Shown one piece after another: positions 18,467-22,240 of a stretch of DNA of 64,000 nucleotides. The notes below the pieces were generated by a model that ran no database searches, was not told the origin of the DNA, and worked only from the letters and a program-made list of their open reading frames with translations. Both the position numbers and the translations under genes were made by a program. Numbering within the stretch: position 1 is the first letter of the stretch; every line of letters starts with the position of its first letter. Location: NCBI GenBank assembly GCA_019429425.1, contig JAHYIU010000002.1:185-64184 (forward strand), written 5' to 3'. This stretch comes from Candidatus Syntrophosphaera sp. GTDB lineage: Bacteria; Cloacimonadota; Cloacimonadia; Cloacimonadales; Cloacimonadaceae.

Positions 18467-21400
18467 TTGATGGAGGATCGTATGATTGAATCCCTTATTG
18501 CGGCAAAACCGAAACCATTGCTTGGCTTGTTGGCGATAATGCTTTTTTTGCTGATGGCAGTGAATGGATTTGCCCAAACACCTTACACTGTGACAACCTA
18601 TCAGGATGCAAACGGCTGGAAGCTGCAGGTGGATGGAGAGGATTACTTTGTGAAAGGAGTAGTCTGGGCCTATACGCCGATCGGAGAAAACTACTCCTAC
18701 AACCTGTGGGGAAATCCCGATGAATTCATCATGAAGGTTCTCGATTATGAATGCGGGCTGATGAAACAGGCAGGGATAAATACAATCCGCAGCTTCGGGA
18801 TCATTCCGCCCCGCTGGGTAACCTATATTTATCGGGAACATGGGATCATGACGATCATGAACCATCTCATGGGCCGATACGGGTATAACGTCGGAGGGGC
18901 CTGGATCCCGCAGACTAATTATGCCGACCGGCTAACCCGGGAAACCCTGAAGCGGGACATTGTCAGCCTTGTGCAGCAGTATAAGGATGTGCCCGGCGTA
19001 TTGATGTTCGCCCTCGGAAATGAGAACAACTACGGGCTGGAATGGTCGAGCTTTGAGATCGAAAACCTGCCCGTGGGAGAACAGCACCGGGAAAAGGCGA
19101 AATTTTTATACAGCTTGTTCGAGGAGATCATCGCCGAGGCCAAAAAGGCCGCACCCCAGCATCTTTTTACCATCGTGAACGGAGACATCCAATATCTGGA
19201 CCTGATCGCCAAGCAGTGCAAATCCATCGATCTGCTTGGTGTCAATGCCTACAGGGGCATCAGCTTCACAGACATGTGGTCCAGGGTGCACAAGGAACTC
19301 GGGCTTCCCGTGATGCTGACCGAATTTGGCAGTGACGCGTTCAATGCCTTGGAGCACAGGGAAGACCAGGCCGGCCAAGCCTATATCGTCAAAGGCAATT
19401 GGCAGGAGATCTACAATAAAAGCCATGGCCATGGAGAGGAAGGAAACGCAGTCGGGGGCACCCTCTTCGAATGGCGTGACGAATGGTGGAAATACTTGCA
19501 GGAGGAAAACCTCTATGTGCAGGACACCCACGCTTCCTGGAGCAATGGCGGTTATGCCTTTGACTACGTGGAAGGCGTCAACAATATGAATGAAGAGTGG
19601 TTTGGGATCTGCCGCCTGGGCTGGCCCAACGACGATGGCGTATACGTGGCTGAGCCGAGAATGGCATACGACGTGTTGGCCAAGATTTGGCGCATTAACC
19701 CCTACGCAGTGGACAAAGCCAAAATGAATGAGAAATTTGCCTCCATCGACATGGAACTGCTCAAACTGGTTGCGGATGTCCGACTGCTGAAGAGCGAAAA
19801 AAGGAAAAGCGACGCGATCCGCATTACCGGAGGCAGTCTGAGGGGCGACCTGGTTTTCAACGGCTTAGCGGCAGATGTGGAAGCCAATGGCAAGAATGGG
19901 CTGGATTTTTCCCACGGTGAGATGCTGTTCCTGGATTTTGAATTCAATCCGATCAGCAGGATAAAGGGCGATTTCACTCTGAACATCCTGGGCAACGTTG
20001 TTGACAAGCAGCTTGATGAGTATTACGGAAAACGCGGCCAAACCTATGTCACCGTGATCACCGAACCAAACGCGAACGGGCTGGAAGTAAACACCACCAG
20101 AGAGGTCAACGATGCGGAACGCCTGGAAGTTTATGATTTCCAAACGACCTACATGACGGACCATTTCGACCTTACCGCCTTTTATCATATCCCCCGCTAC
20201 CACTGGGGCTATGAGGGCGATTTCTTTGGCCTGCTGTATGAAGCCACGGACATGGAGGGAATGGATATCTGGAATGCCAAGGCCCCCTACGGCGTGGAAT
20301 TCACCGGCAACAAATTCCTGCCGGGATTCACGCTGCTCACGGGCCCAGAGATCTATTGGGGGGCCAATCCCAAGGCCATGCTCAAATACGATTTTGGCGG
20401 CAATAAATTCAAATACACCCTCATCCATGCCGAAGACTTTGCCCAGGCCGCCGCGTCTGCCACGGCCACCGAAGCTACTTCCCGCGCAACCAGGCAGACT
20501 GCTCTGACCATGGAAACCAAGATCATCCCGCGCACCAAGCTGCAACTCGGCTACCTTTTCGCCGGCAGCGAAAAGCTTGATGATGTGTTCTACTATTATG
20601 AAGACGGCAATGTTTATCAGGATAAGATCGAGCTTATGGATACCCAGGGCGCCAAGGCAAAGATAACTGTGGACGCTTTTAGCGGCAGCAAGATCGACGC
20701 CGCGGTGCATTATGCCGGACTGGTGGCCGATGGTGGAAGCCCCTTAAGGGAATTCAACACCACCATGCCCTTTTCCTCTTTGGGAAACAAGCTGGAGTTC
20801 GAAGGCGGAATGCTGGTCCCCATTGGCAATTTCTGGCTGCTGCCGCGGGCTCTGTATCGGACCAATTTGCTCGATTCCAATCCCAGTCTCGAGCCCTCCA
20901 TCGATGGTACTGACCTCTTTCCCGGCCTCACACCCCGCAACCGGGACAAGGATCCATTTGCTGTGTTGGACAACCGGCAGGCATTGTCCGGAGAGTTTTT
21001 CCTGACTTACGACCCCACCCCGGCCAGCTTTTTCTATGCTTGGGACAGTGATAAGAAGGAAGATGCCCGTTTCGCCTTCAGCATTGGGGGCAATTTCACC
21101 CGCTATGAAACAGTGACCGACGCCAACCTCTTCTATTACCAGGAAGGCAAGACCAACGCGCCCTTCGGCAGTGGAATGCCCGCCGCGGATGTCTGGCTTG
21201 CCAAAGGCCGGTTTGTCCTCAACCCCAATCCCAGGCTGAAGCTGATCGCCAACCTCGAAGGCGGGAAACAGCAGGCTTCCGGCAATCCTGACGGGGAGTT
21301 GGCCGAGTACATTTCCCTGGCCACGGACCTGGTTATCGCCAAAAAACACTACCTCTCAGCCTATGCCAAAAAAGACGCCTGGGGCCCGCTGGACTGGTAT

Positions 21401-21607
21401 CGCCAGTTCAACATCACCTTCCCCTACCAATTCATGCTGGATTATTCGGTCTTGATCGACAACATCCTGGATAAAACTATCTCCAGCCGGCTGGGATTCA
21501 GGACCCTGTTCAGAACTCTTAACGCAAACTCACCCGTAAATGAAGGTGCCGCTGTCAATAGTGACTACCAGTTCCAAACGGGCGTCTATCTCAGACATGA
21601 ATTCTAA
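18467..21607 (+). CDS. Secreted fusion protein: N-terminal clan GH-A (beta/alpha)8 glycoside hydrolase domain plus ~600-aa C-terminal outer-membrane beta-barrel-like region
   Basis: 1046 aa; start ambiguous (TTG 18467, ATG 18470 or ATG 18482). Signal peptide ...LFLLMAVNGFAQ. GH-A motifs GINTIRSF, FALGNENNY (acid/base) and MLTEFGSDA (nucleophile). The C-terminal part is rich in alternating amphipathic strands (LKLIANLEGG, YISLATDLVIA, RLGFRTLFRTL). It ends YQFQTGVYLRHEF, an OMP-type beta-signal with terminal Phe. Confidence 0.75.
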   Translation: MMEDRMIESLIAAKPKPLLGLLAIMLFLLMAVNGFAQTPYTVTTYQDANGWKLQVDGEDYFVKGVVWAYTPIGENYSYNLWGNPDEFIMKVLDYECGLMKQAGINTIRSFGIIPPRWVTYIYREHGIMTIMNHLMGRYGYNVGGAWIPQTNYADRLTRETLKRDIVSLVQQYKDVPGVLMFALGNENNYGLEWSSFEIENLPVGEQHREKAKFLYSLFEEIIAEAKKAAPQHLFTIVNGDIQYLDLIAKQCKSIDLLGVNAYRGISFTDMWSRVHKELGLPVMLTEFGSDAFNALEHREDQAGQAYIVKGNWQEIYNKSHGHGEEGNAVGGTLFEWRDEWWKYLQEENLYVQDTHASWSNGGYAFDYVEGVNNMNEEWFGICRLGWPNDDGVYVAEPRMAYDVLAKIWRINPYAVDKAKMNEKFASIDMELLKLVADVRLLKSEKRKSDAIRITGGSLRGDLVFNGLAADVEANGKNGLDFSHGEMLFLDFEFNPISRIKGDFTLNILGNVVDKQLDEYYGKRGQTYVTVITEPNANGLEVNTTREVNDAERLEVYDFQTTYMTDHFDLTAFYHIPRYHWGYEGDFFGLLYEATDMEGMDIWNAKAPYGVEFTGNKFLPGFTLLTGPEIYWGANPKAMLKYDFGGNKFKYTLIHAEDFAQAAASATATEATSRATRQTALTMETKIIPRTKLQLGYLFAGSEKLDDVFYYYEDGNVYQDKIELMDTQGAKAKITVDAFSGSKIDAAVHYAGLVADGGSPLREFNTTMPFSSLGNKLEFEGGMLVPIGNFWLLPRALYRTNLLDSNPSLEPSIDGTDLFPGLTPRNRDKDPFAVLDNRQALSGEFFLTYDPTPASFFYAWDSDKKEDARFAFSIGGNFTRYETVTDANLFYYQEGKTNAPFGSGMPAADVWLAKGRFVLNPNPRLKLIANLEGGKQQASGNPDGELAEYISLATDLVIAKKHYLSAYAKKDAWGPLDWYRQFNITFPYQFMLDYSVLIDNILDKTISSRLGFRTLFRTLNANSPVNEGAAVNSDYQFQTGVYLRHEF

Positions 21608-21619
21608 AAGGAGCAAATC

Positions 21620-22240
21620 GTGAAGAAAAGACATATACTGATCATCCTGAGCCTGGCGCTGATCTTAATCGCGGGCTGTGACCGCCGGACCGGCTACATT
21701 TCCAATGTGGTTGACTTGCCAACTGATCACATGCTGGACCTTTACGGCGCCAATGAAGGAATCCATCCGGACCAGAGTGTTCTGACCGATCCTGCCAATC
21801 CCTTTGCCGACGCGAATCTGAACATGCAGAACGTCTGGGATCTGACTGAAGTATGCCCCTCCCCCAAAGCAAGGTTCTATCTGTGGGCGACCATTTTGGC
21901 CAACATCCCCATCGGCGAGTATCAGTTTTTCACCGGCAAATCCCTGCATGAGCTGTACACTGCCGGCGGTAGCGAGAATGCCCGTCAGCAGGCCAAAAAA
22001 GCCTATCGCGCCACCCTGGACCACTTTTTCGATTCTGTCACCTGGTGGCGGGCTGATTGGATCGTGGAGGAAACCTATTACGCTGTCCTGCTCCGGAACA
22101 TGGTGGCCAAAAGCCTCTATGACCCCTCCGAAATGAACCTCCTGCCGCTCTACAGCGATCCCGTGCTGGCTCTTGCGGACCTAAGCGAATGGGGTTATGT
22201 CTACGACATCGAGACAGGAACCGTATCCAGAAGGGACTAG
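21620..22240 (+). CDS. Small lipoprotein of unknown function, partner of the GH-barrel protein
   Basis: 206 aa. GTG start 8 nt after AAAGGAG. Lipobox LILIAGCD. The rest looks mainly helical by composition. Starts 12 nt after the 1046-aa gene. Confidence 0.7.
   Translation: MKKRHILIILSLALILIAGCDRRTGYISNVVDLPTDHMLDLYGANEGIHPDQSVLTDPANPFADANLNMQNVWDLTEVCPSPKARFYLWATILANIPIGEYQFFTGKSLHELYTAGGSENARQQAKKAYRATLDHFFDSVTWWRADWIVEETYYAVLLRNMVAKSLYDPSEMNLLPLYSDPVLALADLSEWGYVYDIETGTVSRRD

Follow-up and report, generated by a model that had tools for sequence, protein, structure and literature searches.

Few marine or fungal polysaccharides are more abundant than laminarin and related β-1,3-glucans, and bacterial uptake of them is so far known almost exclusively from the SusC/SusD systems and TonB-dependent transporters (TBDTs) of Bacteroidota. 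In SusC/SusD systems, a gene for an outer-membrane barrel followed by a gene for a lipoprotein stands at the head of a glycan-degradation operon. A gene pair with the same layout lies in a 64,000-nucleotide stretch of DNA from Candidatus Syntrophosphaera sp. of the Cloacimonadota (assembly GCA_019429425.1, contig JAHYIU010000002.1, positions 185 to 64,184; hereafter the window, to which coordinates refer unless another locus is named). The first gene (18467–21607, plus strand) encodes a glucanase domain resembling glycoside hydrolase (GH) family 158 fused to a giant β-barrel region, and the second (21620–22240, plus strand) encodes a 206-residue lipoprotein that is the conserved partner of the fusion. 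We find that this pair is a real, widespread and previously undescribed outer-membrane module of β-glucan utilisation loci. It consists of a barrel family and a lipoprotein fold without earlier description and is a new outer-membrane module in an otherwise known type of locus, the polysaccharide utilisation locus (PUL). An import interpretation is plausible, and we give an even chance to the specific proposal that the pair serves a β-1,3-glucan (laminarin) utilisation locus with the barrel as a TonB-independent passage.

The proteins of the pair depart from SusC/SusD in several respects. They have no match to the Plug, TonB-dependent receptor or SusD families of Pfam, the predicted barrel has about 28 strands rather than 22, and a hydrolase is fused to it. 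SusD is a TPR-like protein of about 500 residues, whereas the lipoprotein found here has 206 residues and no structural neighbour. Among the loci listed, the fusion occurs in at least eight phyla and not in Bacteroidota alone. We rejected identity with SusC/SusD because neither a plug with a 22-strand barrel, nor a TonB box, nor the features of SusD/RagB were found. At the mature N terminus of the fusion, where a TonB box was looked for, sits the first β-hairpin of the GH domain, and the N-terminal segment YTVTTYQDANGWKLQVDG, considered as a candidate box, is the counterpart of the GH158 N-terminal hairpin. An earlier examination of the letters and open reading frames alone (hereafter the sequence-only reading) had stated that the protein has neither plug nor TonB box and that the pair heads the plus-strand operon of a β-1,3-glucan locus without SusC, SusD or any other TBDT. 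Both statements agree with our results: no Pfam family was matched, the AlphaFold2 (AF2) model has about 30 strands, and no TBDT or SusC/SusD was found among the large open reading frames (ORFs) of the window. The fusion is the sole candidate outer-membrane barrel found in the locus.

Genomic context was counted in 53 loci of at least 15 kb. GH16 genes were present in 52 of them and at least two classes of β-glucan genes in 49, and a TBDT was detectable in one; no further TBDT came to light when the unclassified ORFs that recur in these long loci, and the largest of the others, were scanned with Pfam. The association of the fusion with β-glucan genes is thus near-exclusive, and the fusion, carried by at least 591 species, usually stands in place of a TBDT. 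In Bacteroidota, the order of genes is a Y_Y_Y (BguR-like) regulator, the fusion, a lipoprotein with carbohydrate-binding modules (CBMs), GH16, a GH161-like protein, GH17 and GH30. This order matches that of the Formosa laminarin PUL (BguR, SusC, SusD, CBM protein, GH16 and so on), with the fusion in the SusC/SusD position. Among Woeseiaceae, laminarin PULs were reported in 11 of 14 metagenome-assembled genomes (MAGs), and only seven of those PULs contained SusC (PMC12175321).

The N-terminal part of the fusion (residues 38–412; 18578–19702, plus strand) is modelled as a clan GH-A (β/α)8 catalytic domain distantly related to GH158. Its best Foldseek matches are LaGH157 (9fz9, E = 8.6e-14) and the GH158 enzymes BuGH158 (6pal, 3.3e-12) and 9p26 (1.3e-11), with GH2 enzymes next. 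When a family profile was compared with Protein Data Bank (PDB) sequences, it matched the processive enzyme GH158(Pro) (9oro, E = 1.3e-5) over residues 154–284 only, from the acid/base to the nucleophile; the single fusion sequence matched the same entry weakly (E = 0.022). The domain is 26% identical to the GH158 encoded in the locus itself at 24144–25949 (E = 7e-14). The acid/base motif FALGNENNY (residues 181–189; 19007–19033, plus strand) aligns with ALGNES of GH158, and the nucleophile motif MLTEFGSDA (residues 283–291; 19313–19339, plus strand) aligns with VTEFGP. Across 70 homologues, G184, N185 and E186 of the first motif and E286, F287 and G288 of the second are invariant. In GH158, the acid/base Glu, preceded by an Asn, belongs to strand 4 and the nucleophile Glu to strand 7, a layout with which the Foldseek matches and the aligned motifs agree; the corresponding residues of BuGH158, N136/E137 and E220, are essential (PMC7157763). 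The TIM barrel and the two catalytic motifs named in the sequence-only reading are thus borne out by fold and conservation alike. The fusion domain shares with the endo-β-1,3-glucanases of GH158 (BuGH158 and GH158(Pro)) the GH-A fold, the N-E/E positions, the N-terminal hairpin and the loci in which they occur. It differs in its identity of only about 26%, in the attached barrel and in family-specific inserts and motifs (WSSFEIENLP, WRDEWWK and NNMNEEW). Judged from sequence and model, clan GH-A has in this domain a divergent member of GH158-like character, with an activity on β-1,3-glucan that is predicted from the genomic context.

Two helices (residues 417–425 and 429–448; 19715–19810, plus strand; pLDDT 81–94 in the AF2 model, assigned by DSSP) link the GH domain to the first strand of a region of about 600 residues (451–1046; 19817–21604, plus strand), which is very likely an outer-membrane barrel. 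In the AF2 model, which was built on 70 homologues (pLDDT 83.7, pTM 0.67), DSSP assigns 30 strands of 7–17 residues each to this region, in an unbroken meander without separable modules of about 100 residues. The model gives 28–30 long antiparallel strands; their true number is probably between 26 and 30, of which 26–28 are likely to be transmembrane, and they presumably close into a barrel. Dyad hydrophobicity across the alignment is +0.57 on one strand face versus −0.09 on the other. Even strands are followed by short connections (2, 5, 3, 6, 3, 5, 5 and 2 residues) and odd strands by long ones (12, 16, 34, 18, 24 and 39 residues); such alternation is the usual asymmetry of outer-membrane proteins. 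The protein ends in a strand with alternating hydrophobic positions, YQFQTGVYLRHEF (21566–21604, plus strand), of the β-signal type. Of 70 close homologues, 65 end in Phe, and among 38 divergent homologues the last residue is aromatic or hydrophobic in 37 and aromatic in 20. Together with the signal peptide and the restriction of the 80 listed loci to diderm lineages, these are the general features of an outer-membrane β-barrel. The strands begin at about residue 451 rather than about 430 as first proposed; the strand-rich region and its β-signal otherwise correspond to the earlier description.

We considered it highly improbable that this region is instead a soluble β-rich domain or an array of CBM or Ig-like domains. 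Alternating hydrophobicity also occurs in β-sandwiches, and the sole barrel-type matches in the Foldseek list, LptD chains 5ixm_C (1.9e-8) and 9rpr_A (4e-8), rank only 26th and 40th, with TM-scores of 0.25–0.33 when normalised to the target. A soluble array, which the sequence-only reading had named as grounds for giving up the barrel, finds little place, however, in a meander without modules, with alternating short and long loops and a conserved β-signal ending in Phe. Across 38 members scanned at E ≤ 0.1 (the window protein plus 37 divergent relatives), the region drew no Pfam match, whether to CBM, Ig or other families; the scan placed GH2_C, GH72 and CBM families on N-terminal parts and gave scattered weak matches to unrelated families of the DUF type. 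All 80 listed loci are from diderms, and standalone forms of the region share its C terminus and carry a signal peptide of their own.

The barrel region does not belong to a described family as far as our searches reach. It matched no PDB sequence, either as a single sequence or as a family profile, and the whole fusion protein had no match in Pfam or NCBIfam. Membership in DUF5916 (CBM9-barrel), LptD, porin (LamB, OprB, KdgM or alginate-export type), autotransporter and TBDT families was rejected, as none of the 38 members gave a corresponding Pfam match. LptD/LptE has a giant barrel of 26 strands, similar in size to the one predicted here, and resembles the pair in its N-terminal soluble domain and its partner lipoprotein of about 170–190 residues, but our pair has no Pfam or PDB-sequence match to it, carries a TIM-barrel hydrolase in place of a β-jellyroll and a helical lipoprotein, and occurs in a catabolic context. 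Sugar porins (LamB, ScrY, ChiP, KdgM and OprB) give oligosaccharides TonB-independent passage in catabolic loci, as we propose here, but have 12–18 strands, are often trimers and lack an enzyme domain, and no porin family matched our barrel. Oar is a protein of the TonB-dependent-transporter type. The myxobacterial outer-membrane β-barrel GluM, for which glucanase activity has been reported (PMC10800785, PMC6971385), is an Oar homologue. We rejected GluM as a member on that ground. The fusion family has a canonical GH-A domain and, outside it, no Pfam match of any kind and hence no plug or TBDT domain. The sequence-only reading knew of no characterised hydrolase–porin fusion, and in the literature accessible to us we likewise found no description of a barrel of this kind joined to a glycoside hydrolase. 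The copies in Thioalkalivibrio sp. XN8, the sole named genome among the matches listed, and in MAGs are named ‘hypothetical protein’.

An exhaustive search with the barrel region alone returned 310 clusters at 50% identity. In most of them, the barrel occupies positions of about 450–1050 in proteins of 1000–1100 residues; the variants comprise standalone barrels, which bring a signal peptide and retain the C terminus, proteins with two GH domains, and CBM–GH–barrel proteins. Two standalone barrels, each with its own signal peptide and without a GH domain, lie outside glycan loci (locus L083, 4165–5946, and locus L084, 8001–9875). One of the two is inside a type II secretion system (T2SS) cluster, after the genes for T2SS F, G and I, and the other is near genes for an HD-domain protein and a helicase. 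These neighbourhoods proved uninformative about topology.

The lipoprotein gene begins with GTG 12 nucleotides past the stop codon of the fusion, and a Shine–Dalgarno sequence, AAGGAG (21608–21613, plus strand), directly follows that stop codon. Its product has the lipobox IAG|C20 with Asp at position +2. C20 is invariant among homologues, and the AF2 model (pLDDT 88.7, pTM 0.79) is mostly helical, with six helices, two small hairpins and an extended conserved N-terminal segment (LPTD..L.L, DP.NPF); a helical lipoprotein of 206 residues with a lipobox had been described from the letters, and these data bear that description out. More than 1,400 clusters (156 plus 1292 homologues) make up the family, none with a Pfam annotation, and the window lipoprotein had no match in Pfam or NCBIfam. 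Foldseek found no structural neighbour with E < 1, the best being E = 1.2. An LptE-like or SusD-like lipoprotein was rejected for these reasons, and the model may represent a new fold. The residue at +2 is Asp or Glu in 110 of 110 cloacimonadotal-type homologues with a recognisable lipobox (in the window, Cys20-Asp21 is encoded at 21677–21682) and in 75 of 118 gammaproteobacterial homologues.

A scan of one genome per GTDB species turned up at least 591 carriers of the fusion, and its taxonomy was taken from 80 listed loci, all of diderm lineages and from at least eight bacterial phyla. The carriers include Cloacimonadota, Gammaproteobacteria (Woeseiaceae, Thiothrix, Leucothrix and Chromatiaceae), Desulfuromonadales, Delongbacteria, Gemmatimonadota, Myxococcota (Myxococcus and Corallococcus), Bacteroidota (Chryseobacterium, Cloacibacterium, Flavobacterium and Saprospiraceae), Fibrobacterota, Krumholzibacteria and Eisenbacteria. 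A hidden Markov model of the lipoprotein matched the ORF directly downstream of the fusion, always on the same strand, in 53 loci (52 fetched and the window). This was the case in every locus of the clade with at least 49% identity whose contig runs past the fusion gene, and also wherever a Myxococcota locus includes sequence beyond the fusion. The pair is thus kept in Cloacimonadota, Gammaproteobacteria, Desulfuromonadales, Delongbacteria and Myxococcota, and the adjacency that the sequence-only reading had wished to see surveyed is conserved across phyla. The lipoproteins of Thioalkalivibrio and of Gammaproteobacteria are 35–39% identical to that of the window.

One clade, comprising Bacteroidota, Gemmatimonadota-type, Fibrobacterota and Krumholzibacteria members, lacks the lipoprotein altogether; in Bacteroidota, the two genes after the fusion encode first a larger lipoprotein that carries CBM11/CBM30-like modules and then a GH16 lipoprotein. 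The loss coincides with changes in three long loops of the barrel: the loop from strand 1 to strand 2 gains 8 residues, the motif LEPSID (808–813) disappears, and the last loop gains 13 residues. Myxococcal fusions are 44–47% identical to this clade versus 37–39% to those of Cloacimonadota and Gammaproteobacteria, and nonetheless carry the loop states of the lipoprotein-bearing clades. This contrast between clades amounts to one evolutionary event and serves as a lead only; it suggests from sequence that the lipoprotein touches the barrel on its long-loop face or in the lumen. Most plausibly, the lipoprotein would be a 1:1 plug, gate or assembly partner of the barrel. For Proteobacteria, the lid on the outer face that was first proposed is an unlikely role. 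A plug in the lumen or a partner in assembly is more plausible, although the fold is not LptE-like.

On which side of the membrane the enzyme lies bears directly on what the fusion does. With long loops behind odd strands and short ones behind even strands, strand 1 should start at the periplasmic face, which by default would leave the GH domain in the periplasm. To our knowledge, the N-terminal soluble domain of every characterised large barrel that has one (LptD, BamA, ushers and porins of the PgaA/BcsC type) is periplasmic. Because of loop parity and these precedents, we lean modestly towards a periplasmic rather than a surface location, and the surface-located enzyme of the sequence-only reading is doubtful. 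The signal peptides of fusion homologues were considered as a further clue, but they are equivalent type I peptides in all phyla, without a lipobox in any, and are uninformative in this respect.

A different topology would follow if the barrel were a surface-display anchor. The glucanase would then be translocated in the manner of an autotransporter, with helix 429–448 across the lumen and the lipoprotein as a seal; the protein would work as an endo-laminarinase bound to the cell, and import would proceed through other outer-membrane proteins. The order of N-terminal enzyme, linker helix and C-terminal barrel with β-signal is that of type Va autotransporter enzymes such as the esterase EstA, whose barrels also end in an aromatic residue. 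By analogy with them, the 20-residue helix directly before strand 1 could span the lumen and leave the enzyme outside. The relative BuGH158 is a predicted surface endo-glucanase (PMC7157763), and Gammaproteobacteria and Myxococcota have no surface attachment of the type IX secretion system (T9SS) kind. Type Va barrels have 12 strands, however, and all type V systems 12–16, compared with about 28 here. Autotransporters have no partner lipoprotein, and no autotransporter Pfam family was matched. A region of 600 residues with five nearly invariant long loops goes far beyond the needs of anchoring, Cloacimonadota already have the T9SS for surface enzymes, encoded in the same operon, and the fusion replaces the SusC/SusD pair rather than merely adding to it. 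We regard a surface anchor as a rather doubtful, if still appreciable, alternative to a passage.

The other genes of the locus fit the degradation of β-1,3-glucan. Downstream of the pair on the plus strand are genes for a surface or secreted GH16-like protein with a T9SS C-terminal sorting domain (22351–24162; Por_Secre_tail, with weak GH16 and EglC matches), a bona fide GH158 β-1,3-glucanase of 601 residues with a type I signal peptide (24144–25949; 9oro E = 1.3e-94, 6pal E = 1.3e-59) and a second T9SS-sorted protein (25946–27541; Por_Secre_tail E = 9e-9), whose start overlaps the preceding gene by four nucleotides. No convincing terminator was found before 27541, and the sequence fits a single operon of fusion, lipoprotein, GH16-like T9SS protein, GH158 and second T9SS protein. 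The GH158 protein has about 170 additional C-terminal residues with no assigned function. A GH158 gene occurs in the fetched flanks of 22 of the 53 long loci, and in many gammaproteobacterial loci it directly follows the lipoprotein gene; the conserved module may consist of three genes, with GH158 as the third. Upstream lies a regulator with a GntR-type helix-turn-helix (HTH) and a LacI-type sugar-binding domain (17208–18314, plus strand; Pfam GntR, Peripla_BP_1 and Peripla_BP_3); the regulator of the gammaproteobacterial loci has a LacI-type HTH instead.

A divergent β-glucan operon on the minus strand (270–16951), assigned from Pfam and NCBIfam matches, N termini and homology to a CBM lipoprotein, encodes a GH16 lipoprotein, a GPH/MFS symporter, GH30, a GH17-like lipoprotein, two CBM-like secreted proteins, a GH161 phosphorylase and GH3. 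GH30 has a signal peptide. GH161 and GH3 have none and are predicted to be cytoplasmic, and the oligosaccharides must therefore cross both membranes. The GH161 β-1,3-glucan phosphorylase homologue (2230–5553, minus strand; 1107 residues) was recognised through PDB entry 9qqk (E = 7.8e-220) and has no Pfam match; similar proteins of about 1100 residues recur in 27 of the 53 long loci. The two CBM-like proteins (5703–8528 and 8556–9938, minus strand) have a common N-terminal module and are homologues of the CBM11/CBM30-like lipoprotein encoded after the fusion in Chryseobacterium (E = 2e-105 and 1e-35). The 941-residue one belongs to a cluster from 26 loci of large, mostly unannotated binding-type proteins adjoining the fusion. 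The GPH/MFS symporter (12784–14754, minus strand) is unusually long at 656 residues, and the MFS_2 model matches it in two stretches with about 175 unmatched residues between them. Elsewhere in the window, a 1573-residue ORF (34164–38885, minus strand) has no Pfam match, and an adenylate/guanylate cyclase protein with AAA_16 (STAND-like) and TPR parts is encoded at 54062–57403 (minus strand), as well as in the related cloacimonadotal locus L007 (482–4321, minus strand).

This catabolic setting bears on a further possibility, that the pair, its attached hydrolase lying in the periplasm, exports something such as partner proteins or a β-glucan exopolymer, like PgaA/PgaB, AlgE/AlgK/AlgL or BcsC/BcsZ. 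A porin in the outer membrane, a helical lipoprotein and a glycoside hydrolase in the periplasm are the parts of known exopolysaccharide exporters, and one standalone barrel lies in a T2SS cluster. However, no glycosyltransferase or synthase was found near the fusion, and its neighbours are all catabolic, namely GH16, GH17, GH30, GH3, GH161, a sugar symporter or ABC importer and repressors of the LacI/GntR type. We therefore consider export or secretion very unlikely.

The fusion gene is 1046 residues long when read from TTG 18467, and the coordinates of this ORF stand as first given. Its true start, however, is probably ATG 18482, which would give 1041 residues, because a GGAGGA lies 5–6 nucleotides before this ATG and most homologues have 1040–1041 residues. 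A type I signal peptide (residues 6–36; 18482–18574, plus strand) was read from the sequence, with cleavage at about A36|Q37, in accord with the signal peptide noted earlier; the AF2 model has a helix at residues 16–35 in this stretch. All type I signal peptides of the locus have A|Q at the predicted cleavage site (genes at 8556–9938, 5703–8528, 18467–21607, 22351–24162, 24144–25949 and 25946–27541), and these sites resemble the N-terminal Gln rule of Bacteroidota. A consensus scan located a σ70-like promoter, TTGACA-17-GATATT (10 of 12 matches), upstream of the fusion gene at 18388–18416 on the plus strand; this promoter is only suggestive, since the region holds no more sites of this kind than shuffling leads one to expect.

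From these data, we infer a sequence of steps for the passage that we favour. A very large barrel of about 26–30 strands would be inserted by the β-barrel assembly machinery (BAM) through its C-terminal β-signal and would give β-1,3-gluco-oligosaccharides or laminarin chains a TonB-independent way through the outer membrane. Initial cleavage would take place outside the cell, through T9SS-sorted or lipidated GH16 enzymes at the surface together with CBM-like binding proteins. The fragments would then cross the barrel, and cleavage by the retaining GH158-like endo-β-1,3-glucanase domain, joined as it is to the first strand, would be spatially coupled to this passage. The tethered domain and the periplasmic GH158, GH17 and GH30 enzymes would shorten the fragments further, the GPH/MFS symporter would carry the products into the cytoplasm, and the GH161 phosphorylase and GH3 would finish their breakdown. 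The helical lipoprotein of 185 residues, as a 1:1 partner of the barrel, would most likely serve as plug, gate or assembly factor, in contact with the lumen or with the long loops that are conserved. Of the hydrolase–porin coupling that the sequence-only reading had proposed for β-glucan loci without TBDTs, the architecture and the context are retained in this scheme, and the placement of the fused enzyme at the surface is doubtful.

Several observations weigh against such a passage. In E. coli, Asp at position +2 retains a lipoprotein in the inner membrane, and by those rules the acidic +2 residue would speak against placing a plug in the outer membrane. A whole clade of carriers does without the lipoprotein, which is therefore not essential to the barrel. 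The barrel itself might be filled by its conserved loops and the lipoprotein, perhaps without an open pore. Standalone barrels in non-glycan contexts indicate that it is not intrinsically glycan-specific. Finally, TBDTs encoded elsewhere in the carrier genomes could act as the importer.

It is also conceivable, although we think it unlikely, that the fusion represents a third kind of importer beside passive porins and TonB-powered SusCD systems and TBDTs. Here, the giant barrel would let in whole laminarin chains, a GH domain tethered at its periplasmic mouth and possibly processive would both cut and hold the entering chain, and hydrolysis in place of TonB would drive one-way uptake. If so, this mechanism would be the basis of ‘selfish’ laminarin uptake in Gammaproteobacteria, Myxococcota, Cloacimonadota and the SusCD-less loci of Bacteroidota.

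The carriers of the fusion include Woeseiaceae, which are abundant in sediments, Cloacimonadota of anaerobic digesters, myxobacteria that prey on fungi and cultured Chryseobacterium; several carriers are in culture, among them Chryseobacterium aquaticum, Cloacibacterium rupense, Corallococcus coralloides and Myxococcus sp. Y35, which makes the hypothesis directly testable. If the pair is indeed the entry point for β-1,3-glucans in these bacteria, metagenomic PUL prediction keyed to SusC/SusD would overlook their loci, and the barrel family and the lipoprotein fold would be new subjects for structural and functional study. The coupling of hydrolysis to membrane passage would then be a new principle of glycan capture.

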